From the IMG/VR virus record IMGVR_UViG_3300025703_000003, positions 1 to 53,125 of that record: a stretch of DNA of 53,125 nt, one strand, 5' to 3'. How positions within the stretch are numbered: position 1 is the first letter of the stretch; every line of letters starts with the position of its first letter. A program made the position numbers and the translations under genes. The notes below the pieces were generated by a model, which did no database searches, had not been told where the DNA came from, and saw only the letters and a program-made list of their open reading frames with translations. This document shows positions 3,746 through 50,538 of this stretch, in pieces. The DNA comes from a virus (lineage: Duplodnaviria > Caudoviricetes).

Positions 3746-4078
3746 TTATTTTTCATTCTCAATCCTGAGAATTCTTTCAGGATGCTTAGTATTTCCGTTC
3801 CATAGTGGTGTTTTCTCACTAATAGCAAGTCGCTCCATGAGTAACATGCTCCCGTAATCGAAGAAGGCGTCCCAGGTGATCAGCGCCACATCCTCCCACC
3901 ACAACGAAGACGCCCGATGTGTCCACTGTCTTTTGGAGAACCGTTCCGTGGAACCGATATAGAGCAACCGGTCATCTTCCGCGAAGTGATAGTAGACGAT
4001 GCACAAACCGTCAGAGGGCGCATTGTGCCTGGTTAAATACCCGAGTTCTTTCAATAGTTCTGGGTCGGGGTATCTCAT
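3746..4078 (-). CDS. GIY-YIG nuclease family protein
   Basis: IVYYH...LLYIGSTERFSKRQWTH...ERLAISEKTPLWN pattern. Confidence 0.75.
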   Translation of the reverse strand: MRYPDPELLKELGYLTRHNAPSDGLCIVYYHFAEDDRLLYIGSTERFSKRQWTHRASSLWWEDVALITWDAFFDYGSMLLMERLAISEKTPLWNGNTKHPERILRIENEK

Positions 4079-5163
4079 TCAGCGTCAGAAGTCAGTTGAT
4101 CTATGACCTTTGAAGCCTCGGCCTTCGTGAGGTCTTTCAAGGACTCAATCTGACGCCCCAGAATGTCGCTGACGTGCGTATGAACATCCGCCTTGTCGAT
4201 GCCCTGGTTCCCGATCATCAGCCTGATCTTCCCTATTTGCGGCTGACTGATCTTCGGCGGTTCTATGGCGTCGGGATGAACGATTGCGGATTCAATTACC
4301 TCCCCGTTCTCATCGGCGACCGGCTCCGTGACAGCGTTGATAACGCCCCGTACCAATTCAATGGCCACTTCAATCTGCTCGGTGCTCAGAATCGACTTCA
4401 CCGGCAACTGATGTTCTACCCATAGGCGACTGACCTCAGGCAGATCCTCGTTTGCGAGCATTGACCAAACAGCATTGAGTTCTTCACGTTGTTCGGTCGT
4501 TGGCGCCTCACCCGATTCAATCTCAGGAGCGGACCTCAGTGTCGTCGTCGGGTTCGTCTTTCGCTTGGAGGTCTTGGGCGCCTCGGCCTTCTCGGGTGCG
4601 GGGTTCTCGGCCTGTCCCATCTCCTCGGCGCTGTAGAGCCCAGAGAGTTCCATCGGGAAGGCTTTGCGAAGCGCGAGCATCTCGGCACACTTACCAAGCA
4701 TCAGCGCCGGCATCTGCTTCCACATCCGGTTAGGATTCCCGTCCTTCACCGTCTGGACGTACTGGTCCCAGGTTGCGGTAGCCCAGAGAGGCTCGACAAA
4801 TCCCTGACGATAGACGCCGACCTTCGCGGCCTTGGGGTAACCATCTTCGGGCAGCCAGAGGTCTGTCCATTCACGATCGGCGCCGCAGTAATAAACCGGC
4901 GTCTGACCCGCGTATTCGCCGCTTCGTTGGGCTACGAGTCGAGCACCGTCAATCGAGACTTGCGTCTGCATGACGGGTCGACCGAGTTTCCCGTCGTAGC
5001 GGCTGACTGCGTAAATCTGTCGAGCGAAAGGATCTAACTGCGTGCGATTGCATTGCTCGATGAACAGAGCTAACTCGTCGTTGGTCACTCCCTTCGCGAT
5101 GGTGTTCTTGATCAACTCGACTTGATCGATGTCCAATGTGCGTACTGCTAATTCGTTACTCAT
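4075..5163 (-). CDS. bet: phage single-strand annealing recombinase Bet/RecT
   Basis: ELALFIEQCNRTQLDPFARQIY, QVSIDGARLVAQRSGEYAG and W..MPALMLGKCAE..ALRKAFP..LSGLYSAEEM motifs. Confidence 0.92.
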   Translation of the reverse strand: MSNELAVRTLDIDQVELIKNTIAKGVTNDELALFIEQCNRTQLDPFARQIYAVSRYDGKLGRPVMQTQVSIDGARLVAQRSGEYAGQTPVYYCGADREWTDLWLPEDGYPKAAKVGVYRQGFVEPLWATATWDQYVQTVKDGNPNRMWKQMPALMLGKCAEMLALRKAFPMELSGLYSAEEMGQAENPAPEKAEAPKTSKRKTNPTTTLRSAPEIESGEAPTTEQREELNAVWSMLANEDLPEVSRLWVEHQLPVKSILSTEQIEVAIELVRGVINAVTEPVADENGEVIESAIVHPDAIEPPKISQPQIGKIRLMIGNQGIDKADVHTHVSDILGRQIESLKDLTKAEASKVIDQLTSDAE

Positions 5164-6017
5164 GATTCCTCCAGGTTGTCTATGTAGTTGTTCATTTCTT
5201 TCACTGCGTTGAATAAATCAAGTGACGCTTCGAAGGCTCGCCATGCGACGTGACGCGGAACTATTGCGAACGGGTCTTTCACTGATACGGTTCCGTCGCC
5301 GCCCAGGTAGATCGCGCGCGCGCCGTCAAGTTGTGGAAGAAACTCGAACGATTCGAGTTGTCCCTTCGCGTCGTAACGAGGCAACTGACACTGCATGTAC
5401 GCCTCGAACTGTTGAGAGACAGAATCGACGTACTCGCCGCCAGTTTTCCAGTCGCCCATCATCAGACCTTCCGCGCCAGGGCCGTCAAGTTCCACGATGC
5501 AGTCGAACCGTCCGCCGTAACTGAACTCACGATTCAGCACCACGCACTCAACGTGCTTGAACTTCGGCTTGTAGATCTTGTGGAAAGTCTCGAGCGCGTC
5601 AACGTACTTCGAGTCCTCGTCAAGCACTTCCACCGCTTCACCGCGGCTCCACCGCTCGGCAACGTCGTGGACGCGATTACCGCGTGTCGCCTTCGCTCGC
5701 CATTGACGGTCGAACTCACCGCGACAGAAGTGAACGTAGATTTCATCGTCGGTTCCGTTCTCTGCGAGTGTTCGGTTCTTAATCGCGGAGTCCGTCTTTC
5801 CTTTCGACGCAGCCAACTTCGCGCGGTGCGCCGGAACGATTGTTCGCTTCTTGCGTGAATTGAGTACGGCTGTCTCAGCGGCGATCTTCGATGAAGCCCA
5901 CCTCAACCCAGGTTTGTCCGCTATGGAAATCACCGACGTGACGCCGGGAACGAACGCGCCGCCCGGCTCGACGCGGTACTTGTGACGAAGGGCCTGGTCG
6001 AAGTCAGAGAGCGTCAT
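5160..6017 (-). CDS. PD-(D/E)XK (Cas4-like) exonuclease partner of Bet
   Basis: PGVTSVI, RGNRVH, YGGRFDC, GDWKTG and Q..AY motifs; adjacent to bet. Confidence 0.82.
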   Translation of the reverse strand: MTLSDFDQALRHKYRVEPGGAFVPGVTSVISIADKPGLRWASSKIAAETAVLNSRKKRTIVPAHRAKLAASKGKTDSAIKNRTLAENGTDDEIYVHFCRGEFDRQWRAKATRGNRVHDVAERWSRGEAVEVLDEDSKYVDALETFHKIYKPKFKHVECVVLNREFSYGGRFDCIVELDGPGAEGLMMGDWKTGGEYVDSVSQQFEAYMQCQLPRYDAKGQLESFEFLPQLDGARAIYLGGDGTVSVKDPFAIVPRHVAWRAFEASLDLFNAVKEMNNYIDNLEES

Positions 6018-6187
6018 ACCTCCACCTCCGCACGCAACGCAGCGACGGTTACCCGACACTGGTCGATGATGGCGTTGAGTAGTGCACTTGACTCCGCGTG
6101 CAGTTGACGCTCGTTGCGCAGTTCGCGCCTCAGTTCGTAGATGTCGCGCTGACATCCGTTGAGGCTGTGGTCAATTTCTTTACTCAT
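6014..6187 (-). CDS. small coiled-coil hypothetical protein, first gene of the recombination operon
   Basis: Start MSKEID behind a CCTGGAGAGG RBS. Confidence 0.6.
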   Translation of the reverse strand: MSKEIDHSLNGCQRDIYELRRELRNERQLHAESSALLNAIIDQCRVTVAALRAEVEV

Positions 6188-33386: not shown

Positions 33387-35281
33387 CTAACTTTGGCCTC
33401 TATTAACAATGCGTCACTCACCGTTGCGCTTGATTTCGCTATATCCCTTACCGTCGCGCTGGTTAGAAGTGTATCTGTGACACTCGCGGTGGCTGGTGAC
33501 CTTGGAAAGCCAGCAGACAGCGTTGAGTAGACGATGGTGAGGATGGTGACAAAGGCGCTCAGTGACGCAGTGGCGCTCAATGAAGCCGTTACGCCAGTCA
33601 TGACGTTGACAACGGCGCCCAACGAAGCAGGGGCGCTCAGTGCGCTGATGACGCTCGTGACGATGGCTGGGTTGGCCGTCATCTGACTCGCCGCCGTGAG
33701 CGAGGTATCCACTGAAGTTGCCACTGGGATACTGGCCGTGAGGCTCGCTGGAACCGTCAACTTGGCCACAACTGACGTGGTGATCGTCACGAATGCCGCT
33801 GCTTCACCGGCTGCCGTGAGTTTCGCCGTCACCCCAAAGATGATTGGAACAGTGGTATTCAGGAACGTCTTTGCTACCAGCGAGGCGACGACACTCGTGT
33901 TGATGGCCACTTGAACGCTCAATGAGGCTGGCGTTGTCAGTGCCGCCGAGACCGTCGAGGTAATTGGTACGTCAACACTCAGGAGTGGCCTAGAGGCCAG
34001 ATTGGCAACGACGGTCGTGGTAATGGGGATAATCGCATTTAGTTCAGGGACAGTCCCAGCAGTCAAGTTCGCTAAGACGGTGAAGTTGATTGGAACCGCG
34101 GCCGAGAGTGGGGCCGTGGTGGTGACCGTCGAAACCACTGAGGTCGTTATTGGCACAGTGGTCGTAAGGGACGTCGGCGCCGTGAGTCCAGCAGCAACAC
34201 TGACGGTCACTGGGACGGTGGCGCTCACAAGCGCCGGGGAAGCCAATGCAGCGGTCACCGAGGTTGATATTGGGACCAAGGCTGTCAGGAACGTCTTAGC
34301 CGAAAGTGACGTGACCACAGTTGTCGTAATTGGGATCGTGGCTGTTAAAGGTTGTGGGACCGTCAGATTGGCAGAGACGGTCGTGACGATGTTGACGATT
34401 GGGGCCAGGTCAGCCGATGCAGTGAGCGTGGCGGCAACTGAGGTGGTAATCGGGACCGTAGCAGTCAGGAGTGTCGTAGCGCTGAGACTCGATACCACCG
34501 TGACATTGATGGGGATGAGAGCGGTGAGCGGTGCCGTGGTCGTGACAATTGCGACAACTGAGGTAGTCACTGGAACGGTCGCGCTCAGGAGTGCTGGCAC
34601 GGTCAGTGCAGTTGAAACGGTCGTGATTGCTGGGATCGTGACTGTGAGCGCGACAGGAGCCCCAACTGAAGCCACGACTGTCGTGATGATCGGGACTGTG
34701 ACGCTGAGCAGTGCTGGGGCGGTGAGTTGAGTCGCCACGCTGGTCGTAATTGGTATCAGCGTCGTGGACAGTGAAGTGGCTGAGAGTTCGACAATGACGC
34801 TCGTGGTTACTGGAATTGTCGTCGCAAGGAACGTCTTAGCTGAGAGCGCGGTGGTGACAGTGGTGGTGATTGGAATAACACACGTCAAAGATTGAGGCAC
34901 CGTCGTCTGAGCAACTACCGTCGTCGTAATCGGAATGATGCACGTCATCAACGCGGGCGCTGAAAGATTCGCTGTGATCGTCGTAGAGACCGGAACCGTT
35001 GCAGCAAGCAGCGATGGCGCGGTAATGTTCGCGGTGACAGTTGACGTTGAGTTTATGGTCACGCTCAACGGGGCACCCGCGGCCACGAGCCACGCTACGG
35101 TAGCCCCCATGCCGTACGCCTGAGTGCCGTAGGCACCGTCTCCGTAGCCGTTACCGGATGACGAGGGGTAGAGGAACGCGAAGGGCTGTGTTGCTTGGGT
35201 TATCGCGGTGCCGAGTGAACCGTCTGTTTCTTGGCGACCGGCGAGTCGGGACCGAGCCGCGAGGCCGTCACCGTTCTGCAT
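33383..35281 (-). CDS. Thr/Val/Ala-rich 20-aa tandem repeat protein (fibre-like)
   Basis: About 25 repeats of the type LSATVPITTSVxAxLTAPAx. Confidence 0.75.
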   Translation of the reverse strand: MQNGDGLAARSRLAGRQETDGSLGTAITQATQPFAFLYPSSSGNGYGDGAYGTQAYGMGATVAWLVAAGAPLSVTINSTSTVTANITAPSLLAATVPVSTTITANLSAPALMTCIIPITTTVVAQTTVPQSLTCVIPITTTVTTALSAKTFLATTIPVTTSVIVELSATSLSTTLIPITTSVATQLTAPALLSVTVPIITTVVASVGAPVALTVTIPAITTVSTALTVPALLSATVPVTTSVVAIVTTTAPLTALIPINVTVVSSLSATTLLTATVPITTSVAATLTASADLAPIVNIVTTVSANLTVPQPLTATIPITTTVVTSLSAKTFLTALVPISTSVTAALASPALVSATVPVTVSVAAGLTAPTSLTTTVPITTSVVSTVTTTAPLSAAVPINFTVLANLTAGTVPELNAIIPITTTVVANLASRPLLSVDVPITSTVSAALTTPASLSVQVAINTSVVASLVAKTFLNTTVPIIFGVTAKLTAAGEAAAFVTITTSVVAKLTVPASLTASIPVATSVDTSLTAASQMTANPAIVTSVISALSAPASLGAVVNVMTGVTASLSATASLSAFVTILTIVYSTLSAGFPRSPATASVTDTLLTSATVRDIAKSSATVSDALLIEAKVR

Positions 35282-38767: not shown

Positions 38768-41701
38768 TCACGCGCTGCGCTTCTCGCGGATCCGTCTCGC
38801 GATTTCGCTCTCTTCGGCGGGTGGTGTCACACGAGGCTTGGGTCCGGTTCCTACTGGTGAAGAGATCGTCGTTGGTCCGGTTCCGTAGACCTCGTTGATG
38901 TAGTACGTCAATGCGTCAACGATGTCGTCATGTGCCCCGTGGTTGAAGGCCGTGCAATTATGAACCGTTCCTCCGGTAGTTACATAACTCTCATCTTCGT
39001 CAACGTGAAAGTTAATCACCTCGCATGGCCCTGTATCGGCCACGCTTCGAACCCAGAAACCGAGTAACTTGTCGCCGTCGTCATCAGCCCACACCTCCGT
39101 GGTGCGAGATTTTGCATTCATATCGACGGTGAATGTCGTGTGCCGACCTTGAATACGACGCTCGGGGTGAAATCGTGGAGTTGCTCGCGTCAATTTGGGC
39201 CACACTCCCATACGGGTGGCGATCAATCGCATCCCCCATGCAAGATGAGGCGAGACCGTAGTACCACGCCCATCGTGACCGTCTCCATCAAGCCATCCGT
39301 CAATAAGACCCTGATGAAATACAAGAGGTGCAGCCCATGCCCACTCAGGGATTCTCTTACCAAATGCCTTATGCCCAAAGGATTTAAACCAGCGCTCGAG
39401 ACGCGGAAGGCTCGCACTAACCACGGTGCAGTTTGGTGATCGAACTGCGGTGAATGTCGCTGATCGAATGCCAAATCTATCTAAGAGCAATGACTGAATC
39501 TCGTCGATAAAGGAAATCTCCGCTGCATTGAATGACCACTGGGCTCTTCCTGACGAATAACTGCCCTCAGCAAGCCACAGGCCACAGAATCGACCGAAAT
39601 CGTAATCAAGCTTCTGTGCATATTTCAACGATTGAGCGCGAACACTGTTGACGCTGATGTATTCACCGTCATCGGTCACAGTGAGACTTCGAGTTCCGGA
39701 TTTTGGCTCTCCTGGGTAGTCGTACCATTCACGAAGATCGATTGACTCCACCTCATAGTCCTCGTCGAGCACAGGAAAAGTAAGCGCGTCACTCATTTTT
39801 GGAGACGGCTGAAGCGTTCCATTCGATACTCTGCGAAACGCACGAGGTGAAAGTTCGCCAGCCGCTTTCCACGCAATCGCTTGGGCGAACTTGCCATTCG
39901 GTTCACTAGCGTTGCTCATCACCATAGAGAGGACTGGATGTTCCGGAGTAAGGCGCAAAGGATCAAGCGTCTTAGCAGTCAACTCGATAGTCGCAGGGGC
40001 TTGACGACGGCTGACTTCCAGAACTTCGCGGAATCGTCCCAGATGGGTTAAAACCCAGTCTCCCACTACAACTTCGCTTGCTTCGATTACACCTCGTCGT
40101 GTGAATATCATGGTATTTATACTAACGCACTCATCAATGAACTGTTCGACGTCAAAGGTCAACTCTGGTATGGCTTTTGATACCGCGACTGACGGGAGAT
40201 AGATGTTGCCGGAACGAATGATCGGGCTCGCGGCTTCCGCGCGGGCTTCCTTCGATGAGGTTGGGTTGACGGGTATCAATCCTGCAATTTCGTGACGTAG
40301 GGCTTTGTGAACCTCGGGACCGTTCGCCCTGTTCTCGAAGTACTTTCGCTTTGCCTGAGGGAACAGCATTGAGACTCGCCTCATGGCGTCAATCGTCCTC
40401 GGCAGGCTGAGTCTGTCGCGCACCTGATAGATGAGAAATGAGTCCGCGCCCTTCTTCGCCCAGACCTGACCGACAACGAAGTCGCTCGTCTTGGTCTCCT
40501 TGAAAGCGAAGTCCCAGGATTGGACGAGTTCATAGCCTCCTTCGACGTGGAACGCGCCGCCGTGCTGAACCCACATCACTCGCTCGTAGCGTTGCCACCA
40601 TTCACGCAGAAGGATCGCTCCGGTGCCCGGTGTCGGATTCCCCTGATACAGCGCGGACCAGTATCTTGCTGACGTCGCGTTCTTCGTCGCCTCCCAGTCA
40701 GCGTTCGTTCGACCACGAGCTGAGACCATGTACTCGCCTACTTCACGCCCAAGGATGTCACTCTCACCCTTGGCAGCGTTGAAGTCAGCCTGGGCGGGGA
40801 TGTTGACCACCGTCCAGTCGTCGTAGTCCTTCACCCCGCTCATGATGTCCTCATCACGCTTACGGATCAACTGCCCTGCAAGATCGTTGTCTGACCATCT
40901 CGTCATCGTCAACATTACGGGCGCCCACGGTGCCAAGCGAGGTCTGGCGGTCGTCTCCCACCACTCCATGTGCTGGCGCGATTGCAACGTTGAGTCTGCG
41001 GCTCGGATGTCCTTCACCGGGTCGTCGATGTTCATCAGGTCTGACGGGTGGCCGGTAAGACCACCGCCAATGCCGATCGCGTACACTCCACCACCGGTCT
41101 CGAGCATCCACCGGCCCATTGCCTTCTGGTCCCTCATCAGACGAAGCCCGATGTCGACGTTGTTCGAGGTGCCGTCAAAGAGTTCGATGTCGCTTCGCAC
41201 CTGATAACTGAACTGACCGGCGTTCACCCCGTCGTAGGAAACCAGCGTGATTCGAAGCGCCGGGTACTGACGTAGTAACCATTCAAGCCCGTAGCGACTT
41301 ACGCGGCTCGACTTCCCTTCTTGTGGGCTCATGCTCAGAATCAGGCGAGTGATGCCACGGCTCGGGATCTCTTCGGTCGCTCTCTCAATGGCGATCTTGT
41401 CGTTGACTCCTTGCGCTAGTAGTTCCTGCAACCGTCGACGTCGTGCGTACATGACCTCGATGGCCTGACTGATCTGCACGAGTTTCGAGTCGATTATCGT
41501 CAACGCAGGGGTTTGGACGGTGGCCGGGTCTAAAGAAACTGCCAGGTCACCGGGCGTCGGATACTCCATGATCCGCTGAATCCTGCGTGTCTCTACACGC
41601 ACTAATTCCTGTTCGTCGGGTCTCAGCGCGTTCCACTTGGCTCGACGTTCGGCCTCGGGGAGTTTGATGAACTCTCTCGCTGAGGGTGAGAGTAGTTTCA
41701 C
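38768..41701 (-). CDS. terL: terminase large subunit, intein-containing
   Basis: Walker A-like MSPQEGKS, Walker B NIDDP, MTRW, LYQGNP, QSWD, SDF, ENRANG and HDDIVDA motifs. Confidence 0.93.
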   Translation of the reverse strand: MKLLSPSAREFIKLPEAERRAKWNALRPDEQELVRVETRRIQRIMEYPTPGDLAVSLDPATVQTPALTIIDSKLVQISQAIEVMYARRRRLQELLAQGVNDKIAIERATEEIPSRGITRLILSMSPQEGKSSRVSRYGLEWLLRQYPALRITLVSYDGVNAGQFSYQVRSDIELFDGTSNNVDIGLRLMRDQKAMGRWMLETGGGVYAIGIGGGLTGHPSDLMNIDDPVKDIRAADSTLQSRQHMEWWETTARPRLAPWAPVMLTMTRWSDNDLAGQLIRKRDEDIMSGVKDYDDWTVVNIPAQADFNAAKGESDILGREVGEYMVSARGRTNADWEATKNATSARYWSALYQGNPTPGTGAILLREWWQRYERVMWVQHGGAFHVEGGYELVQSWDFAFKETKTSDFVVGQVWAKKGADSFLIYQVRDRLSLPRTIDAMRRVSMLFPQAKRKYFENRANGPEVHKALRHEIAGLIPVNPTSSKEARAEAASPIIRSGNIYLPSVAVSKAIPELTFDVEQFIDECVSINTMIFTRRGVIEASEVVVGDWVLTHLGRFREVLEVSRRQAPATIELTAKTLDPLRLTPEHPVLSMVMSNASEPNGKFAQAIAWKAAGELSPRAFRRVSNGTLQPSPKMSDALTFPVLDEDYEVESIDLREWYDYPGEPKSGTRSLTVTDDGEYISVNSVRAQSLKYAQKLDYDFGRFCGLWLAEGSYSSGRAQWSFNAAEISFIDEIQSLLLDRFGIRSATFTAVRSPNCTVVSASLPRLERWFKSFGHKAFGKRIPEWAWAAPLVFHQGLIDGWLDGDGHDGRGTTVSPHLAWGMRLIATRMGVWPKLTRATPRFHPERRIQGRHTTFTVDMNAKSRTTEVWADDDGDKLLGFWVRSVADTGPCEVINFHVDEDESYVTTGGTVHNCTAFNHGAHDDIVDALTYYINEVYGTGPTTISSPVGTGPKPRVTPPAEESEIARRIREKRSA
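38957..40129 (-). mobile_element. intein with LAGLIDADG homing endonuclease (391 aa)
   Basis: Starts CVSINT, block B LTPEHPV, endonuclease motifs GLWLAEGS and GWLDGDG, ends VHN followed by Cys+1. Confidence 0.92.
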
Positions 41702-41850: not shown

Positions 41851-42033
41851 CGTGGGTCGAATCTCGCGCAGCAATTGAACCCCGAATCCCAGTTGTGGAA
41901 TCGCCGCTGAATTCCGCATCGCGCGCACTTCTTTTCACCTGCCAACGCGTCTTCGTGTTTCTTCTGCCATTTACGGTCAGCGCGAGCCTGACGACGTTCC
42001 TCACGACTCCACCTGGTTAATTCATCCCAGATG

Positions 42034-42399
42034 TCAGCCATTCGGCCACCGATCGAAGACCACGCCATCGGGCATCGTTACTGCACCGTTCGGCGCTCGA
42101 ACTGGCATGGCCTTTAAGACCACGGCCGGCGTGTGCTTGGCGTCACGCTCACCCTTGTCAATCGCCATCTCGATTGCGACGAGGACGAACTCGGTCTTCG
42201 TGCAGTTGAGTTTGGCGACCTGCTTCAAGAGTCTCTCGTTGAGGTCGTCGGAGATTCGACAGGAGACGGTGTTAGCCACGATCTTCTTTCTCGAACGTCC
42301 GACACGGACAGCGGCCCCATAGCGTGGTTTCGTGGTTCCCGTTGCATCCTGTGTAGAGCGGTCGCTTGCCGAAACCAAAGGCAAGAGTTCCGTGGTCAC
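42034..42399 (-). CDS. ribbon-helix-helix domain protein
   Basis: VSCRISDDLNERL.......TKTEFV..AI pattern. Confidence 0.62.
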   Translation of the reverse strand: MTTELLPLVSASDRSTQDATGTTKPRYGAAVRVGRSRKKIVANTVSCRISDDLNERLLKQVAKLNCTKTEFVLVAIEMAIDKGERDAKHTPAVVLKAMPVRAPNGAVTMPDGVVFDRWPNG

Positions 42400-43238: not shown

Positions 43239-43729
43239 GGCAGATTCTTCAGTCTGTACTCGGCTCGCCAAATGGCGTTCTTGTCATCCCATCCGAGAAG
43301 TTCTCGTGATTCCTTCGTGTCATCTGAACCGAACGTGACGTACTTCGTGAGATCATCGAGGTTCATCCTTGCCTGCAGAAGATTCATGCATGGATAGTGA
43401 AGAACGTCGTCGCTCGACATGTAGCCAGTCTGCCCCTGCTTCCACAGGAATCGGTGACCGCACTCAGCGCAACGGTTGAACAACCATCGCTTCACGCGAT
43501 CGTACGGTCGTATCTGAATTCGGAGGTGGCGAACGTGACGCGCAGCGAACTTCAGCGTCGTCCACGAAAGCCCTGACGAGAATCGGCCCTTACAGATTTC
43601 TCCGCTGTCGTGACCATTGGGCTCGACGTGCCAGACGGTCACGAATGACTTGTGGTACCGGCGCTTCCACGATGTCTTCTCCCACCACGGATACCGGATA
43701 TCGAACAGAACAACCATCGGGTCATGCAT
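43235..43729 (-). CDS. hypothetical phage protein
   Basis: Start MHDPMVV; VTVWHVEP..DSG..C and RCAECG motifs. Confidence 0.65.
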   Translation of the reverse strand: MHDPMVVLFDIRYPWWEKTSWKRRYHKSFVTVWHVEPNGHDSGEICKGRFSSGLSWTTLKFAARHVRHLRIQIRPYDRVKRWLFNRCAECGHRFLWKQGQTGYMSSDDVLHYPCMNLLQARMNLDDLTKYVTFGSDDTKESRELLGWDDKNAIWRAEYRLKNLP

Positions 43730-44282
43730 CCTCGCTCGCCTCCTCAACTGCCTGGGCTTCCAAGAGAACCTTGAACACGTCCTCACCAGAGAGTGCGATG
43801 TCGATTGAACCTCCATTGGGGCCAGAGACTTCGGTCGCTGATTTCGTTGAGTATTCGTCACTCGCCTGATGTGTGAGCTTGAACTTCGCTGTTGAAGTAG
43901 CAAGGGCTCGATCGGCATCAGAAGCGTTATTCCATCGCTCTTTACCTGATCCTGATTCCAGCGCGAATGCCAAGACTGTTTCGCACCTTCGGAGCCATTC
44001 GTCTTCGACTACGGCACTTGCTGCAAGAAAAGCGATGCACTTGTTATCAAAGGCGTTTCGCTTAGTAGGGGTCTTTTCCAAGGCTGCTTCGCCACGGGCC
44101 TTCCAGTTCTTTACGGTCACGATGCTGACGCCGGAAAGTCTGGCTGATCGTTCCCAGGATATTCCGAGCCTGCGATTGGTGAAAATCTGCTCTTGCACCT
44201 CGTCGGTCAGTGACGGTGGTCTGCCCCCTCCGTGAGGTAGGACCTTGCGACGTCCGTCGACTTTCTTTCGGGGAGTGACCAT
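43722..44282 (-). CDS. terminase small subunit-like HTH protein
   Basis: GRPPSLTDEVQEQI, HTH SARLSGVS..TVKNW and EVSGPNGGSI tail. Confidence 0.7.
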   Translation of the reverse strand: MVTPRKKVDGRRKVLPHGGGRPPSLTDEVQEQIFTNRRLGISWERSARLSGVSIVTVKNWKARGEAALEKTPTKRNAFDNKCIAFLAASAVVEDEWLRRCETVLAFALESGSGKERWNNASDADRALATSTAKFKLTHQASDEYSTKSATEVSGPNGGSIDIALSGEDVFKVLLEAQAVEEASEDA

Positions 44283-44483
44283 TTGTCACACATTAACAAA
44301 ATTCGAATGCGTTTGTGTGACAAACTCTAAATGTCTGGCGCTGCTCGCTCGCTTCTTTGAGGTCCAGAAATGGGGGTTGCGCTATGACGTGGAGATCCCA
44401 TGATTTCGAATGGGACTCTCCACAGGTCGTCAGCGTGACTCGGGCTCGACGCCTTAAGGGAAACTGCGTTCTCATCCTACAGC

Positions 44484-44517
44484 GAAAGACCCCCGGGAAA
44501 CGATCCGAGGGCCTTTC
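44484..44517 (-). terminator. intrinsic terminator ending the accessory operon
   Basis: Minus strand GAAAGGCCCTCGG-loop-CCGGGGGTCTTTC. Confidence 0.65.
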
Positions 44518-44546
44518 TGAGTGTCTCCTTTCCGTGTGTTACAAAG

Positions 44547-44906
44547 TCATGTCTCGTCCAGCAGTCTCTGAATAGAAGAAGCCACGAATTGTGCTTTTTC
44601 GAGTGTGTCGCGTCGAGTTAATTCATACCCGTGTCGAGTGATGGACCACTCCGCTATCACGTCCGAATCGCGGGTTGGCGAATACTTGCGCAGCGGCCTC
44701 AGAAGCCAGTCACCAGCAACGAATATCTCGCCAAGAAATCCAGTTCCCTCCCACTCCAACACTGGTGCTAAGGGGGGTGAAAGACGAGATTCGTGAACGT
44801 TCACGGCATACTCGCGGCACATGCGCGACAAATCCGCCAGGTCGCTATCGTCCAGTATCGGCGCGAAACGCTCCAAGATTTCGTAAAGTTCTGTTGGTTC
44901 GCTCAT
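44547..44906 (-). CDS. hypothetical protein (cassette array)
   Basis: RBS supplied by the junction repeat CCCCTAAGGAGCCGTAAATG. Confidence 0.65.
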   Translation of the reverse strand: MSEPTELYEILERFAPILDDSDLADLSRMCREYAVNVHESRLSPPLAPVLEWEGTGFLGEIFVAGDWLLRPLRKYSPTRDSDVIAEWSITRHGYELTRRDTLEKAQFVASSIQRLLDET

Positions 44907-45162
44907 TTACGGCTCCTTAGGGGCCGACAGTGGGAGTTTTCGGCGTTGTGTGCGCTGACAAAAGGGGTCATTTTGTTTTTTCCTTTTCGACGAAGACTTG
45001 ACCCGGCGCGAGTTTCTTGAGAATTGACATGAGGAGGCTCATTCTCATCGTGATCTCTTGGGTTGACCACGGCATACTGTCATTTCGCGCAATTTCCCCC
45101 GAGAATTGGTCTCGATATTTCGGCCACTGTTCGAGTGCTGCCGTGGAGTTAAGTCGGTCACA

Positions 45163-45276
45163 ATGGCCGTCCAGATGCCTCCAGCGAAGCCTGAGACGAC
45201 GCCGCTGGCAAGTCGCATGGCAGACCTCGCAACGCGCGTTGCTGGTCGCCTGACCTACAAGGCGATTACTCGCTAA
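45163..45276 (+). pseudogene. C-terminal remnant of an IS1595-family transposase
   Basis: Translates ...SRMADLATRVAGRLTYKAITR*, resembling the GxRLTYKxL C-terminus of IS1595 transposases. Confidence 0.55.
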
Positions 45277-45406
45277 TTCCTTCGGCTTCAGCGCGGTCCA
45301 ATTCTTCGTCCGCGCCAGACTCCACGAGGGCTTGCGCGACCTCTTCAGGGTCGTTGCCGACAAGGGTGAATCGCTCGTCCAAATCGGGTTTGAATTTGCG
45401 TTCCAT
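45266..45406 (-). CDS. small acidic ORF convergent with the transposase remnant
   Basis: Hand translation MERKFKPDLDERFTLVGNDPEEVAQALVESG... Confidence 0.45.
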   Translation of the reverse strand: MERKFKPDLDERFTLVGNDPEEVAQALVESGADEELDRAEAEGISE

Positions 45407-45410
45407 GACA

Positions 45411-46010
45411 TCATTCTACGCCCGAGCGCCAGTGATTTAGACGGTGTAGCGTCCGACTTAGTAGCCCATCAGAGGAGATGAAATGGCGAAGTACTACTGG
45501 ACGATCAATAAAGAAGAAGACCCGAGATACCACACGAACACCGGATGCTTTGAGGGATTGAAGATCAAGAAGGAGAACCGACGAGAGGGTGACTCCATCC
45601 CCGCTGACCGGACTCTCTGCGAAGAGTGCTGAGTCCCTAGTCTCGCGCCACTCGGCTTGAGCCTGGTCCCATTGGTGCCAGTGCCCATCAGTTCCAATGA
45701 AACTCGCGTACCACTGGCGCATGAGTTCCCGCGGTTCACCCGTGTAGTAGTGGTAGGTGGGTACAACACGACCCTCTAGGGGCATTCGAGCGCCGAATCC
45801 TTTGGGGATGGGAACGAGTTCCCAGTTCACGTCCGTAAGTCCTTTGTCCCATGCTCTGCGCACAAAACACAGTGGGCACCTAACGCCACCGGTTGAGCCG
45901 TCCAAGCCACAGTCCATGATCGAATCCCAGATTTCAAAGGGCGCGTGCCACCGGATATTCAGCCCTCCGCAGTCCGCACATGGTCCATCGCCGAGCCAAT
46001 TACCGGCCAT
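45411..46010 (-). CDS. passenger hypothetical protein (CxxC...CxxC N-terminal domain)
   Basis: PCADCGG...W...RCPLCFVRRA. Confidence 0.55.
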   Translation of the reverse strand: MAGNWLGDGPCADCGGLNIRWHAPFEIWDSIMDCGLDGSTGGVRCPLCFVRRAWDKGLTDVNWELVPIPKGFGARMPLEGRVVPTYHYYTGEPRELMRQWYASFIGTDGHWHQWDQAQAEWRETRDSALFAESPVSGDGVTLSSVLLLDLQSLKASGVRVVSRVFFFIDRPVVLRHFISSDGLLSRTLHRLNHWRSGVE

Positions 46011-46227
46011 GAGTGGCCTGATTTATGAGTTCATTTCGACCCTTTTTGTCAGCGCACTCGTCGCCGAGTTTTCGGTAGCGCGTCGTTATCCAAATCTTGC
46101 GCCTACCCGCATCGACAATCGTGTAGCACTGATGAGCAGAGCAGCGCGTACAGTCACGACACTGGCCCGGCGCTCTACCTCCATCCGGCTCAACGCCTTC
46201 GGTGGTCCATTTATGACGATGAATCAT
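46000..46227 (-). CDS. Cys-rich gene interrupted near its 3' end by the IS-like element
   Basis: Removing the element restores the ending ...RYRKLPLSAPKEP*. Confidence 0.6.
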   Translation of the reverse strand: MIHRHKWTTEGVEPDGGRAPGQCRDCTRCSAHQCYTIVDAGRRKIWITTRYRKLGDECADKKGRNELINQATHGR

Positions 46228-46228
46228 T

Positions 46229-46591
46229 TTACGGCTCCTTAGGGGCGCTGGAAGATGGGGAACACTTCATGCGCTTCTTCCATTTTCGCGGTGACTCCAC
46301 GACCCAATCTCGCCAGCACGGAAGAACACGGACGCTCCCTCGCTCAATGATTCCGCTGTTTCGCGGTTGGTCGTTAGGCCACTGCAACGTCCAGCGACGG
46401 TGACAGGAATCGCACTCCCACACGTCGCCGTCACGGTAGTTCATTGAGTCATCGTGAACCAGATTGCGCCCGATCATCTCGCTCGGCAATCCGAAGCGAC
46501 CCGTCGTCATTGCTTCGGTGATGAGTTCGAGTAGTTGCGCGACTCGACAAGTGTGGGCCGCCGGACGCCTGCTAATTACAGTTCCGCTCAT
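46229..46591 (-). CDS. hypothetical protein (cassette array), ends SSSAPKEP
   Basis: HTC...GDVWECDSCHRRW. Confidence 0.65.
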   Translation of the reverse strand: MSGTVISRRPAAHTCRVAQLLELITEAMTTGRFGLPSEMIGRNLVHDDSMNYRDGDVWECDSCHRRWTLQWPNDQPRNSGIIERGSVRVLPCWRDWVVESPRKWKKRMKCSPSSSAPKEP

Positions 46592-46902
46592 AGTTCCCCC
46601 GTCACTGGATGCCGCTCAATACTTTGAGGACACGTCTCGGCAGTGTGACCGTTCCGTCCGCACCAATCGCATTTCTCTCCCATTCGCTCGGCTACAATCA
46701 CAACTTCCCAGATAGCAACGCGAATTGCGTCTTGGGCTATCTCTCTCGCGTCCGCCATCGACACGTCCTCGGGCTTGAACCATTCCTTGGTCAAGGCAGC
46801 GTCAGCCATCGCGTAAAGAGCTTTGGCAATTGACTGGCGCTCTTGACTGCGCCCCGCTTCTCGCGCCGCCTCAACGACATCATCTAAAGTCGCTTCACTC
46901 AT
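46588..46902 (-). CDS. hypothetical protein with zinc-knuckle-like C-terminus
   Basis: CDWCGRNGHTAETC; start supplied by the junction repeat. Confidence 0.62.
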   Translation of the reverse strand: MSEATLDDVVEAAREAGRSQERQSIAKALYAMADAALTKEWFKPEDVSMADAREIAQDAIRVAIWEVVIVAERMGEKCDWCGRNGHTAETCPQSIERHPVTGEL

Positions 46903-46903
46903 T

Positions 46904-47245
46904 TCACCCCTCCGTTTCAGGTGTAGGGGCGTTGGAAGATGGGGTGGCCTCGTCAATTTCGGTTGGGCACCCTTGGTCCAACAGTGCCAGAACTGAAGTG
47001 GTCCCGTGGCCGCTGTCACGCTGTTCCTTAACCCAATTGCGCGCCACTTCAATTATCCCCTGAAGGCGCGCAATCTCGGTGACCTTGGCGTCGATAAAGT
47101 CGCACTGATGCTTACATACGGCAGCGTCGCACACAACGCACGAATCCCAGGTTGATTCGCTCACAGGTTTCCTTTTTGGGGGGGCCGTGGGTATGGGGGC
47201 GAAGCCTCGAACTGAACCTTTCGCCTGACGATGATTTTCACTCAT
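46904..47245 (-). CDS. hypothetical protein (cassette array), ends SSNAPTPETEG
   Basis: Bounded by two junction repeats. Confidence 0.62.
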   Translation of the reverse strand: MSENHRQAKGSVRGFAPIPTAPPKRKPVSESTWDSCVVCDAAVCKHQCDFIDAKVTEIARLQGIIEVARNWVKEQRDSGHGTTSVLALLDQGCPTEIDEATPSSNAPTPETEG

Positions 47246-47246
47246 T

Positions 47247-47504
47247 TCACTCCTCCGTTTCAGGTGTAGGGGCGCTCGAAGATGGGAAACGTGCTTTGTC
47301 AACTTCGGCTCTGAGGTCAGCGGCCAAGAGTGGCAGTTCGCGCTCGCACAGGTCGGCGTAGGCGTTCAGTGCCTCGCGGGCGAAGGTGTCGTGAGTCACG
47401 TCCAGCACGAAGTAGAAACAGCCGTCATGCTTTCGGCCCTTCCCATCGTTGCCGTCAACTCGCGAAATGTGATACTTCCCTTCGGGGTAAAGACCGTCCT
47501 TCAT
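47247..47504 (-). CDS. hypothetical phage protein (cassette array), ends SSSAPTPETEE
   Basis: KY...RVDG.....KHDGC.YFVLD..HD.FA..AL.AYA motif. Confidence 0.7.
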   Translation of the reverse strand: MKDGLYPEGKYHISRVDGNDGKGRKHDGCFYFVLDVTHDTFAREALNAYADLCERELPLLAADLRAEVDKARFPSSSAPTPETEE

Positions 47505-47505
47505 T

Positions 47506-48153
47506 TCATTTCTCCGTTTCAGGTGTAGGGGCGCTGGAAGATTCAAGAATGCGCCATTGAAAATCTTCGCCGTCCCAGAATGCGTCAACGGGGCCGTCGT
47601 ACAACTTCGATTCATAGCCGGTCGATTCGTGGCATTCGAGCCAGTCGTAGCACTCAAACGATTCTTGGCTCTGGCATTTCCCAGCGTCAACCAACGTGTG
47701 GTCGCCAAGTTCGTCCCACAGTTCACAGTCGTCGTCCGTACAACGCATCCGACAGAACGAACCCTCGGGAGCCGTGCAAGTGAACTTCGTTCGCACCCAA
47801 TCGTTCTCGACCCAAACACGCAAATTGTGAAAGTTCCTCTCCGTTAGCCCTGTAGGGGCGCTCGCGGCGAGAATGAAATCGTGCTTTGGAAGTGCCTTTC
47901 GGCCACTGTCGTTGGCGAACCATAGAGCGCAGAAGTAGCAGCCGTCCTCGCCAGCCAACAGACGTGCAGCCTGAACTTGGTCGTGCGGTAATCGCGGCGG
48001 TTCAGGGGCGAGGGTTTTTAATTTGTCGGCGGCGAAGCATAATCCCATGCTGAACTCATGAATTTCATTGGTTTCGGCAGCCGCTTTGTAGAGCAGGTCA
48101 ATCGCCGCTTCACGCGAAATCACGTCGCCCCTCAGTTCACTTGGCTCAGTCAC
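47506..48153 (-). CDS. hypothetical protein, probable fusion of two cassettes
   Basis: Begins MTEPSE with DVISREAAI, ends SSSAPTPETEK; internal degenerate repeat. Confidence 0.65.
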   Translation of the reverse strand: MTEPSELRGDVISREAAIDLLYKAAAETNEIHEFSMGLCFAADKLKTLAPEPPRLPHDQVQAARLLAGEDGCYFCALWFANDSGRKALPKHDFILAASAPTGLTERNFHNLRVWVENDWVRTKFTCTAPEGSFCRMRCTDDDCELWDELGDHTLVDAGKCQSQESFECYDWLECHESTGYESKLYDGPVDAFWDGEDFQWRILESSSAPTPETEK

Positions 48154-48349
48154 TGGTCTCCTCTGAAATTAGGGCGTCGATAGCAAATTGAAGTCCTTCC
48201 ATCCGAGCGTCGTGACAGATTCCGCGAGGCTTGAATGAGTTGTCGCAGCACTTCTCGTCGCACTTGAAATACATCTCTCGCTCCTTCGTCAACTCGGTAA
48301 CCAACACTCCAAGAGTGTCGTTCCTCTTTCGTTCACTTGGCTCAGTCAT
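48146..48349 (-). CDS. hypothetical protein starting MTEPSE
   Basis: Coupled to both neighbours. Confidence 0.55.
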   Translation of the reverse strand: MTEPSERKRNDTLGVLVTELTKEREMYFKCDEKCCDNSFKPRGICHDARMEGLQFAIDALISEETSD

Positions 48350-48524
48350 AGAGTTTCCCTTTCGGCTTGCGATGGTGCAGGTAGGCGTCGGAGTTTTCCT
48401 CGACGTAGGGCGCGAGTGTCGCTCGCAAGTCTCGGGCGACATCTGTGTCAATGCGGCCCAATTGCCACCATCTGTCGATGTGCGCCTTGCAAACCTCGTA
48501 TGGCTCTGGCTGGACGAGACTCAT
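48342..48524 (-). CDS. hypothetical protein
   Basis: 60-aa coupled ORF. Confidence 0.5.
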   Translation of the reverse strand: MSLVQPEPYEVCKAHIDRWWQLGRIDTDVARDLRATLAPYVEENSDAYLHHRKPKGKLYD

Positions 48525-48561
48525 TTCTTTTCCTTTCGTTCACTTGGCTCAGGGGGGCGAG

Positions 48562-48888
48562 TCATGCGTTTTCTTTCGCAGCGGCACGTTCAAAACGACG
48601 ACGGGCGATTTCTGCATCAGCGAGGTCGAGTCCTTCCGCTATGCCCGAGGCGCGACCGAGAAAATGCGGCATAACGGGCTTCTGGTCGATGAAGAACATC
48701 ATCCGATCATTCCTTGCGTACTCCACGAGGAACCACTGACGTTTCGTTTCGTCGGTCTGGCCTTCGTAGATTGCGAAGTAACGGTCCTCTTGCAGTGTCC
48801 AGACTCCGGTGTCGGCCTTCTTCCACACACCGACCGCCGAGAAATGGAACTTGGGCTTCGCGGACTTCTTCTTGGCTTTCTTGCTCAT
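48562..48888 (-). CDS. hypothetical protein
   Basis: 108-aa ORF with a GAGGA RBS. Confidence 0.6.
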   Translation of the reverse strand: MSKKAKKKSAKPKFHFSAVGVWKKADTGVWTLQEDRYFAIYEGQTDETKRQWFLVEYARNDRMMFFIDQKPVMPHFLGRASGIAEGLDLADAEIARRRFERAAAKENA

Positions 48889-48938
48889 TTCATCCTCATT
48901 TTCCTTGGCTCAGGGGCAAGATTTTCGTTTTTCATGGT

Positions 48939-49112
48939 TCAGCTTTCTGATCGTGTCGCTCGGTACGTCTCGTCGTTAATTCCTAGAACCTCGTCGGCCG
49001 CTTGCATGGCCGCTTTGTGCACGAACTCAGCGAAGGTTATGCCGAGGATACGGCAGACCTCCGCGAGACGCTTACGCTCTTCGGCGCTGAAGGTGACGAT
49101 CTTGCGCGTCAT
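48939..49112 (-). CDS. ribbon-helix-helix-like protein (57 aa, not in the ORF track)
   Basis: MTRKIVTFSAEERKRLAEVCRILGITFAEFVHKAAM... Confidence 0.55.
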   Translation of the reverse strand: MTRKIVTFSAEERKRLAEVCRILGITFAEFVHKAAMQAADEVLGINDETYRATRSES

Positions 49113-49286
49113 AACGGCAGGCTGTGACGCGTGATGACCATGTGCTGGCCGTCCTTGTCGTGGAAGGTCAGGCCGTCCTTGAATGCCTCGACGTACCTCG
49201 GGTAGGTGGCTACTGGGACGCGAGTCGTCTTGGCGTCGTTCTCTCGCTCGAGGGTGTACAGAACCTCGTGGCGGCGGACGTTGGTC

Positions 49287-49613
49287 TCAGACATTCGATT
49301 CCTTAGCAATCTCCCTAGGCAGTCCGTACCATTCGCGCTCGGCACGGTGATTGGGCATCGCGAGTCGTGCGGCTAATGCTTTGCGGTAACTGTCGATCAT
49401 GCGCTGCGCGAACGCGACCGCTTCTTCACGAGTTGCGAACGCTTTGCGGAGAGCAGGATTCTTGGTGTAACCGCGACTGCCGTCCTTGGTCTTGGTGCAG
49501 TTGATAACTGGCACGTAGGGCCACTCAGGACTGCGCCCGCGCTTCACGGCCGACGCCGTTCCGAAGTCGACTCCCGCGACTACCTTTTCAATGGCTTCGG
49601 TCAGTTCACTCAT
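49287..49613 (-). CDS. hypothetical protein, first gene of the accessory operon
   Basis: CCTGGAGGG RBS directly behind the promoter/operator. Confidence 0.68.
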   Translation of the reverse strand: MSELTEAIEKVVAGVDFGTASAVKRGRSPEWPYVPVINCTKTKDGSRGYTKNPALRKAFATREEAVAFAQRMIDSYRKALAARLAMPNHRAEREWYGLPREIAKESNV

Positions 49614-49639
49614 TTAACCCTCCAGGTTAGTTACTGCCT

Positions 49640-49677
49640 TGTATGACCAATCATACATGGTTCGGAGGCAATTGCAA
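49640..49677 (-). promoter_or_regulatory. sigma70-type promoter with operator copy 4 (49640-49657)
   Basis: Minus strand TTGCAA-N16-TATGAT overlapping TGTATGACCAATCATACA. Confidence 0.75.
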
Positions 49678-49683
49678 GTCAAT

Positions 49684-49899
49684 TTAGGGTATTTCTGGCT
49701 TCTCACCGTGCTTTACCCCGCGAATGATGTCCGCCCTCATCACTCCCGAGGCCCGAGCGAGTTCGGCCTGGGAATCTCCGGCTTCGAGTCGACGTCGCCA
49801 GATACTGCGTCTCCGGGCGTAGATGCCGTTCTTCTTGTCGGTCAGGCCCGCTATCTCGCGGAGTTCTTCGTAGTCGCGCTCTTTAGAGATTCGGGGCAT
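49684..49899 (-). CDS. helix-turn-helix DNA-binding protein
   Basis: GDSQAELARASGV.RADI motif. Confidence 0.68.
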   Translation of the reverse strand: MPRISKERDYEELREIAGLTDKKNGIYARRRSIWRRRLEAGDSQAELARASGVMRADIIRGVKHGEKPEIP

Positions 49900-50173
49900 T
49901 GATGACCTTCTCCATGTCGTCTCGTAGTCGTTCTTCATCTAAATCTGCGGGCGTAAGATTCGATAGCCGACGATGTATCGAGCCAGTGTTGTATTCGTGC
50001 GCTAACTCACCCCTTGACCAAAGAATCGTAATCTTCTCAATGCCGTTGCCAACGGCGAGTTTCAGTAATTCTTCTTCGACCGCGACTCGATCAGTGAAGG
50101 TAAACACGATCTTGTCACCTTCGATGACGCCACCACAATGCGCGACCATTTCTTCGAGCGACATCCCACTCAT
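49883..50173 (-). CDS. hypothetical protein
   Basis: Coupled ORF. Confidence 0.55.
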   Translation of the reverse strand: MSGMSLEEMVAHCGGVIEGDKIVFTFTDRVAVEEELLKLAVGNGIEKITILWSRGELAHEYNTGSIHRRLSNLTPADLDEERLRDDMEKVINAPNL

Positions 50174-50538
50174 TCCTCATCCTCTCCGAGGTCCATCGTC
50201 AACTGTCCGCGCTTCAATGCTTCGGCTTCGACGAAGAGGTCGACGGCCTTTTGCAGCACTGAACCCAAGAGTTCGTCCTTGTCGCCCTCGTCGAAGAACA
50301 CTGCGGAGCGAGCTTCGAATATTTGGATTTGCTCGACACCGATTGGGGATCCATCGACGCTCTCGTAGTCGAAGCGGTCCTTTGCTTTCACTAAGCGCAC
50401 GATTGCGAACACCGTCTCGTTGGGTTCGTACAACTGGGGCTTGATCTCCAATGTCTCACTGAGTCGGGTGTTCAACTTCGACACCGTGGCTGAGGTTGAG
50501 AGGATGGGGAGTTTCTTGAACTTGCCGAGATCGGTCAC
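50170..50538 (-). CDS. hypothetical protein
   Basis: Coupled ORF ending GQLTMDL. Confidence 0.62.
   Translation of the reverse strand: MTDLGKFKKLPILSTSATVSKLNTRLSETLEIKPQLYEPNETVFAIVRLVKAKDRFDYESVDGSPIGVEQIQIFEARSAVFFDEGDKDELLGSVLQKAVDLFVEAEALKRGQLTMDLGEDEE

Follow-up and report, generated by a model that had tools for sequence, protein, structure and literature searches.

Short coding junctions between genes and protein modules of a phage accessory array: candidate adaptors for expression and module exchange

Introduction

How does a run of small, mutually unrelated phage genes come to carry nearly the same sequence at one boundary after another? The question is raised by an accessory-gene array of a soil and peat phage, the virus record IMGVR_UViG_3300025703_000003 (Duplodnaviria; Caudoviricetes), a complete IMG/VR record of 53,125 bp with direct terminal repeats, which was analysed over its full length and is referred to below as the window (also called G000). 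A preliminary description, made from the sequence alone, proposed that repeats at the gene boundaries delimit exchangeable cassettes, in the manner of an integron without an integrase, or else that the peptide they encode serves as a targeting or degradation tag. We found that the junctions lie at gene boundaries and within genes, that they recur with the same codons in phages that are otherwise almost entirely different, and that related loci diverge at them. In the reading that we favour, the junctions, which are 25-55 nucleotides (nt) long, are probably transferable adaptors for expression that also provide the homology for exchanging modules.

Structure of the junctions in the array

A repeat search of the window revealed one family of 50-nt repeats, here called S-type, at 46894-46943, 47237-47286 (94% identity) and 47496-47545 (80%), with relatives at 46240-46263 and in a 19-nt pair (44906-44924 and 46228-46246). 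A 30-nt pattern with up to 3 mismatches matched exactly the three places of the 50-nt family and had 0 matches in 100 shuffles, and the 16-nt core was found at four places in the window compared with a mean of 0.43 in shuffles. The placement of the repeats at gene boundaries was thus borne out; the ATGs behind them are those of g5 (46902-46900), g4 (47245-47243), g3 (47504-47502), g7 (46227-46225) and g11 (44906-44904).

On the sense strand, each boundary copy supplies a tail (SSSAPTPETEx or SSSAPKEP), a TGA or TAA stop codon and, 0-2 nt further on, an ATG, with a Shine-Dalgarno (SD) sequence (GGAG or AAGGAG) 6-9 nt upstream of that ATG. The combination of tail, stop, ribosome-binding site and start that had been described for each repeat holds for the boundary copies, except that the tail at 44904 belongs to the remnant of an interrupted gene, g7. 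The cassette genes all lie on the minus strand, in one orientation, and the S-type core occurs in the window only at 46248-47861 and only on the sense strand. When ten array proteins were compared by blastp, the matches below an E value of 0.05 all ended in the shared C-terminal tail, and apart from this tail the genes between S-type repeats are mutually unrelated. The preliminary description was correct in this last respect and needs amendment in another: g5 carries no tail, so that g5 and g6 form a two-gene unit between two repeats. A sixth S-type copy lies in frame within g2 and contains no stop.

A second, E-type family of junctions (sense strand CCTGAGCCAAGTGAAC, peptide PEPSE[RL][KR]) is represented by four copies and extends the array to approximately 48.9 kb. 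Two of them form the N-termini of g1 and g2, and the other two lie in remnant open reading frames (ORFs) of 16 and 14 codons before other genes. The copy at the start of g2 is 92-96% identical to sequences in the loci L043, L035 and L047 over 48-53 nt. The positions of the junctions, of the genes between them and of the other features discussed below are listed in Table 1.

DNA folding of both strands of three junctions revealed no more structure than expected (z = 0.08 to 1.71), with 104-195 of 200 shuffles folding equally well or better, and no inverted repeats were detected at the junctions in the repeat search of the window. Promoter-like sites numbered four against 2.3 expected, none of them within a junction, and the sole terminator-like site on the sense strand (45887-45875) is inside an inserted element.

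Table 1. Junctions, cassette genes and other features of the window
Feature	Position	Strand	Basis
E-type copy 1, in 16-codon remnant ORF between RHH-like gene near 48.95 kb and gene 48562-48888	48889..48913	-	
Cassette gene, 108 aa; missing from L043 and one X1 contig	48562..48888	-	
E-type copy 2, in 14-codon remnant ORF before gene 48342-48524	48528..48552	-	
Cassette gene, 60 aa	48342..48524	-	
E-type copy 3, g1 N-terminus MTEPSERK	48321..48345	-	
g1, cassette gene, 67 aa	48146..48349	-	
E-type copy 4 (repeat 48125-48149), start of g2, VTEPSELRGDVISREAAIE	48098..48153	-	
g2, 215 aa, two modules fused in frame by S-type linker	47506..48153	-	
In-frame S-type linker AASAPTGLTER, no stop codon	47839..47864	-	repeat search
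Junction A1, g2 to g3: ILESSSAPTPETEK, TGA, then ATG	47496..47550	-	
g3, 85 aa, matches phrog_9572	47247..47504	-	
Junction A2, g3 to g4	47237..47286	-	
g4, 113 aa, Cys-rich cassette gene	46904..47245	-	
Junction A3, g4 to g5	46894..46946	-	
g5, 104 aa, no tail, overlaps g6 start; CxxCGxxGHxxxxC spacing	46588..46902	-	
g6, 120 aa, ends SSSAPKEP	46229..46591	-	
Junction C, g6 to g7: PSSSAPKEP, TAA, then ATG	46224..46263	-	
g7, cassette gene, 3' part displaced by inserted element	46000..46227	-	
Mobile element, 1,126 bp, terminal inverted repeats of ~29 bp	44941..46066		repeat search
Junction C': LSAPKEP, TAA, then g11 ATG; tail is g7 remnant	44904..44926	-	
g11, 119 aa, mosaic relative to L043 and L045; conserved internal patch 44745-44786	44547..44906	-	
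Exonuclease, candidate partner of RecT	5160..6155	-	phrog_298, 2.3e-25
RecT-family single-strand annealing protein, candidate catalyst	4075..5163	-	PF03837, 6.2e-33

Junctions in other phages

A search of the repeat in viral metagenomes, of the kind suggested in the preliminary description, revealed that the junctions recur and that the modules between them differ; all of the comparison DNA is metagenome assembly. An exact 22-mer search returned a single other IMG/VR record, G001 (75 kb, terminal repeats). In a blastn comparison, the window and G001 matched in one gene (64%), one 86-nt stretch (73%) and the junctions (92-100% over 26-36 nt) and in nothing else; blastp gave a G001 match for six window proteins. 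The S-type core in G001 is confined to 41923-42395, again on the sense strand only. Three of the G001 copies are in frame, 117-135 nt apart within one 156-amino-acid (aa) ORF, and the fourth is placed between two genes, after the stop of the first and before the ATG of the second, where it is read solely by a 10-codon mini-ORF.

A 22-nt degenerate pattern matched 13 metagenome loci, eight of which have recognisable junctions, six of these with 2-6 copies; two of the remaining five repeat G001 and three are chance-like, as is the lone match in GTDB. We rejected L036, L040, L044 and L046 (the last from an Actinomycetes metagenome-assembled genome) as carriers, treating these single copies without the extended core as chance, and the Actinomycetes match consequently supports no inference about the host. 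Of the 19 matches of an 18-nt degenerate pattern in IMG/VR, 17 were likewise set aside as single matches such as chance would give; the exceptions were G001 and L047/L048, the latter counted once since they are identical over the stretch. L047/L048 represent a third lineage, which was found by a scan with the E-type linker and also has two S-type linkers; L047 and the window have only junctions and an exonuclease in common.

In total, 11 loci yielded 33 S-type copies, of which 18 have a stop within 12 codons and 15 are in frame; 19 of the 33 are independent of the scan pattern. The carriers belong to at least three phage lineages with almost nothing else in common and include complete records with terminal repeats (G000, G001 and G003). 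At least three unrelated junction sequences, the S, E and P types, are in use, and in-frame linkers join modules within longer proteins (L038, 303 aa; L035; P0011-P0013).

Some further sequences of this kind were observed in these lineages. At L047:3328-3981 and L047:5925-6778, an ORF with a methyltransferase-like DPPY motif ends in a junction-like tail, SSASTPEMES, and two consecutive genes end in SSP(T/A)SVGGGE, apparently a further tail and junction family. In the P0002-P0005 lineage, the linkers AAPSRAEGGEQ and APSRAPEQK connect small modules, among them the same Cys-rich one (VENDW…FQWRI); searches of IMG/VR for related loci with P0005 and with an alignment gave no relative. Conserved linkers between small modules may be widespread.

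Conservation of the junctions at the codon level

To compare constraint on DNA and on peptide, we used the share of identical residues that are encoded by the same codon. This share was 127/409 (0.31) in the genes common to the window and G001 and 16/18 in the two G001 linkers that had not been used to find G001 (P = 5.6e-7), or 24/26 when the ascertained copy was included. Similarly, the S-type linkers of the window and of L047, a locus found via its E-type linker, had 17/18 codons in common, compared with 45/99 in the shared exonuclease (0.45; P = 1.6e-5). Codon identity in the junctions is far above the baseline. In a codon-blind search for [SN]AP[TK], the occurrences outside a junction context use varied codons; two K-type junctions have the Ser codon TCG, not AGC. 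Because part of the core is fixed by the regular expression with which copies were counted, the argument rests on the flanking codons and on the independently ascertained copies.

The same measurements bear on the idea that the element acts as a peptide, whether as a flexible linker between modules, a C-terminal targeting or degradation tag, or a protease cleavage site. Such a role would suit the in-frame copies within longer proteins, the Ala-Pro followed by Ser, Thr, Lys or Val that is common to several linker families, and a Pro codon that varies only synonymously (CCT or CCC). It would leave unexplained why the same codon recurs at 16/18 and 17/18 residues against the two baselines, and why some copies are found only in mini-ORFs of 10-16 codons, and the KE and TE residues are already explained by the SD sequence that they encode. 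The tail is absent from 12 of 13 non-identical homologues of g3, and the g2 C-module has homologues (61-66% identical) that are bordered by APSRAEGGEQ or APSRAPEQK linkers or by no linker. The tail is not a property of the protein families, and homologues of g3 and of the g2 C-module work without it. We consider a peptide role very unlikely; codon identity, the 10-codon mini-ORF copy and the untailed homologues likewise disfavour the shared peptide as a tag.

Codon identity is equally what selection on RNA would produce, and the junction might mainly be a cis-acting expression signal (for translation coupling, ribosome standby or an mRNA- or DNA-binding factor) in which recombination is incidental. 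The GGAG or AAGGAG placed 6-9 nt before the ATG and the 0-2 nt between stop and start in the stop-start copies fit this explanation, the lack of structure beyond that of shuffles suits ribosome access, and the Start-Associated Sequences of Cluster K mycobacteriophages offer a precedent (PMC3203893). However, 15 of the 33 copies are in frame with neither stop nor start nearby, the copies lie within one 4-kb region and are not spread over the early genes, and the invariant part reaches approximately 30 nt upstream of the SD sequence. Moreover, junctions of at least three unrelated sequences (types S, E and P) behave alike, and no Rfam family matches. A mainly cis-acting role is, in our judgement, unlikely.

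Breakpoints and gene content

The proposal that the cassettes are exchangeable found support in related loci, where gene content is not fixed and breakpoints coincide with the repeats. The 4.6-kb locus L043 is syntenic with the window from 42.0 to 49.9 kb, and its flanking genes are 76-92% identical. Between 48.9 and 44.9 kb, within the array, it matches only at 48555-48533, 48145-48098, 47864-47842, 47550-47501 (98%), 46258-46224 and 44926-44871. Six non-homologous intervals separate the two sequences, each with junction sequences on both sides; L043 has one gene in place of g3-g6 and one in place of g7 and the inserted element. G001 and L033 are 99.98% identical over 4,140 nt, and the match stops 23 nt past the start of the linker core, at the end of SSAPTGLTR. 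In P0014, which is 99% identical to g3, the tail combines the start of the g3 tail with the end of the g4 tail, as expected of a product of recombination between junctions A2 and A3.

Logan contigs from four peat and soil runs (X1-X4) align to the array only at junction sequences. Three separate joints in X2 tie junction A (47546-47550) to the in-frame linker at 47842, and in one X1 contig 48555 is joined to 48916 with 2 letters between, so that gene 48562-48888 is missing. Most of these joints represent relatives in which the junctions align and the intervening sequence is unknown. A backward joint in X4 (48152 to 47512, 8 letters between) was considered as a circle and rejected, as it resembles the order in L035, in which a gene start of E type comes after an S-type junction.

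Short-read assemblers can join co-occurring related phages at junction repeats, and the mosaic could in principle be largely an artefact of this kind: the Logan contigs break at junctions (47521-47541 and 48123-48145), and many variants occur together in the same runs. A chimera of this sort would still need genomes that share a junction yet differ on both sides of it, which is the phenomenon itself. The window order was confirmed through four junctions by an X1 contig that covers 44757-47541 with 0 differences, the same order of linker types was found in the separate assemblies L035, L038, L043 and L047/L048, and the complete records G000, G001 and G003 carry junctions. We regard a mosaic that is largely an artefact as extremely improbable.

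Inserted element

The element at 44941-46066 is not part of the junction system. It is flanked by 6-bp direct repeats (44935-44940 and 46067-46072). Its depth in the soil runs X2 and X3 was 120-195, compared with 2-5 for the phage flanks (30-60x), and the contig homology in these runs stops at 44941 and 46065, the tips of the element; these two observations indicate that it is mobile and lives mainly elsewhere. The frame of g7 is offset by 1,132 nt (1 modulo 3) from the one that ends in SAPKEP, which exactly fits a single ORF minus the element and one copy of the 6-bp repeat, and g7 has accordingly been interrupted.

The longest ORF of the element (199 aa) has homologues at 57-67% identity; a Pfam search gave no family for this ORF or for its 8 database matches, and a comparison of the element with plasmids gave no match. 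A variant of the element carries 331 extra letters at 45144/45145.

Genomic setting and other genes of the array

The minus strand carries almost all of the window genes. Structural proteins encoded in the window are a portal, a major head protein and a tape-measure protein, and there are genes for two DNA methyltransferases and an HNH protein. The nearest relatives of the large terminase, approximately 40% identical, are those of a cyanophage and of phages of Actinobacteria. Its ORF (38768-41701) is 977 aa long; the terminase part stops near residue 530 and is followed, at residues 700-751, by a LAGLIDADG_3 domain, which may be a fused homing endonuclease or an intein-like insertion.

Pfam scans of 76 window ORFs (19+24+33; outside 42-49.7 kb, minus-strand ORFs of at least 70 aa) detected no integrase, recombinase or transposase family. 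The 19 proteins of the 42-49.7 kb region gave no confident Pfam family, the lone match (E 0.008) being under the curated cut-off, and the PHROGs matches there were limited to g3, the small terminase subunit near 44.2 kb and a repressor-like protein. No match was obtained when 44500-49500 was compared with GenBank phages by blastn or when 43500-50500 was searched against Rfam (E up to 1).

The patch at 44745-44786 in g11 (34-42 nt, LSPPLAPVLEW) is 95-100% identical in L043 and L045, unlike the remainder of g11, and may represent a further in-frame linker. The CxxCGxxGHxxxxC spacing of g5 also occurs in the cassette proteins L043:551-688 and L045:268-852, and many other cassette proteins have CxxC pairs. 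The spacing matched no family, and we take it to resemble a CCHC zinc knuckle. An AlphaFold2 model of g2 from an 11-row alignment was unusable (mean predicted local distance difference test score, pLDDT, 44.3; predicted template modelling score, pTM, 0.27).

A model for the junctions

The reading of the junctions as expression adaptors and homology patches would work as follows. In the stop-start form, a tail of Ser, Ala, Pro and Thr residues, the last codons of which spell the SD sequence, is followed by a stop and by an ATG at once or 1-2 nt on. With half a junction at each end, a module would be translated wherever it lands, probably with translational coupling to its neighbour. In the in-frame form (SSAPTGLTRE and others), the same core would join two protein modules into one polypeptide. 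Since junction DNA is near-identical between copies and between co-occurring phages, recombination over short homologies could replace, delete, duplicate or fuse modules, either within concatemers or between co-infecting phages. The catalyst would probably be the phage RecT and exonuclease or an equivalent, and repeated exchange would homogenise the junctions while the modules diverge.

Several observations weigh against this interpretation. The g5-g6 boundary has no junction repeat, and gene 49287-49613 is replaced in L043 by an unrelated 45-aa gene with breakpoints at the gene ends and no junction repeat, so exchange is not confined to junctions. No recombination event was directly seen, and the evidence from the runs consists of Logan contigs: single-contig contiguity in X1 is limited to 44757-47541, contigs merely overlap at 47521-47541 and 48123-48145, and some junction breakpoints may be chimeras, as assemblers switch between co-occurring strains at shared repeats. 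RecT or ERF matches were absent from the junction-bearing records G001, G002 and G003, in which other families of annealing proteins were not searched. The recurrence of Ala-Pro-(Ser/Thr/Lys/Val) in several linker families, including APSRAEGGEQ, suggests some constraint at the peptide level, and purifying selection on a cis-acting RNA or DNA signal would keep codons identical just as recombination would.

A more far-reaching idea, which at present seems unlikely to us, is that the junctions constitute a system dedicated to module shuffling, comparable in phages to exon shuffling. Crossovers would then be directed to designated points, marked by an invariant 12-nt core (AGCGCCCCTACA) kept in one reading frame, and every exchange there would give an expressed product, whether as separate genes coupled in translation or as an in-frame fusion. 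Small early-gene modules, possibly with functions in anti-defence or host takeover, would form a pool open to populations of unrelated phages, and a specific nuclease or annealing factor might recognise the core, which would then be more than a passive patch.

Comparison with known systems

The promoter-early stem-loops (PeSLs) of T4-type phages are the nearest described system. In the account of Arbiol et al. 2010 (PMC2839356), PeSLs are short intergenic repeats, each made up of a sigma-70-like early promoter and a stem-loop that acts as terminator or attenuator, and they are found in a variable region at the borders of small non-essential genes. They reach from the stop of the upstream gene to the SD sequence and start codon of the downstream one and are active as expression signals; the insertions, deletions and replacements by which close relatives differ are attributed to recombination between PeSLs. 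Recombination between neighbouring PeSLs is described as yielding mini-circles. The window repeats, too, border insertions, deletions and replacements (in L043, between G001 and L033, and in the X1 contig at 48555-48916). Unlike the PeSLs described there, the window junctions have neither promoter nor stem-loop, and the repeat is mostly coding, supplies a peptide tail and fuses modules in frame in 15 of 33 copies. PeSLs are also the subject of Comeau et al. 2014 (PMC4122927).

The attC sites of integrons are imperfect inverted repeats that fold as single-stranded hairpins, and an IntI-type tyrosine recombinase adjoins the array. The proposed likeness to an integron without an integrase stands as an analogy, given the one-directional and promoterless small ORFs of the window, the recurrent junction and the gain and loss of units. 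It does not extend further: no integrase was found in the 76 window ORFs scanned, and the junctions are translated, are not palindromic attC sites and form no attC-like hairpin.

In the modular theory of phage evolution, short conserved boundary sequences between non-homologous segments let homologous recombination reassort modules, as set out for lambdoid phages (PMC3029335). The window junctions are likewise short and conserved and have non-homologous DNA on both sides in related phages. According to Pope et al. 2011 (PMC3029335), boundary or linker sequences are usually not found and are rarely identifiable; those described here are explicit and present in many copies, their codons are the same in unrelated phages, and they operate on genes as well as on protein modules.

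The Start-Associated Sequences (SAS) and extended SAS (ESAS) of Cluster K mycobacteriophages are described as an asymmetric repeat in one orientation that carries an SD sequence and is situated a few nt before the starts of non-structural genes of different families (PMC3203893). In that description, the SAS is 13 bp long (consensus GGGATAGGAGCCC), always precedes a start codon, from which it is 3-7 bp away, is dispersed over the non-structural half of the genome and sometimes overlaps the upstream stop, and the role proposed for it is translation initiation, not the marking of mosaic breakpoints (PMC3203893). Of the 33 S-type copies, the 18 stop-start ones have a comparable placement of SD sequence and start codon, and the other 15 are in frame without a start. 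The S-type core is, moreover, confined to one short interval in the window and one in G001 and is not dispersed. The consensus GGGATAGGAGCCC is absent from the window, where the search gave one match with 2 mismatches (at 34650, on the other strand), compared with 0.77 expected.

A survey of domain mosaicism found that fragments are common to non-homologous phage proteins and that shuffling is ongoing (Smug et al. 2023, PMC10684548). Its main text is agnostic on mechanism and uses neither 'linker' nor 'breakpoint', whereas here a defined DNA linker marks the points of exchange. As for the enzymes, De Paepe et al. 2014 (PMC3945230) report that the formation of mosaics from diverged sequences is driven by phage Rad52-like recombinases, RecT included; on the action of phage recombinases on such sequences, see also PMC2327257.

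Implications

In the literature we found no description of coding, frame-preserving junctions of this kind, which does not prove that there is none. Boundary sequences that are explicit, present in multiple copies, common to unrelated phages and located in coding sequence with the frame kept provide a concrete substrate for experiments. If the junctions do serve as expression adaptors and homology patches, this would offer an explanation for the domain-level reassortment and fusion of small early proteins of unknown function.

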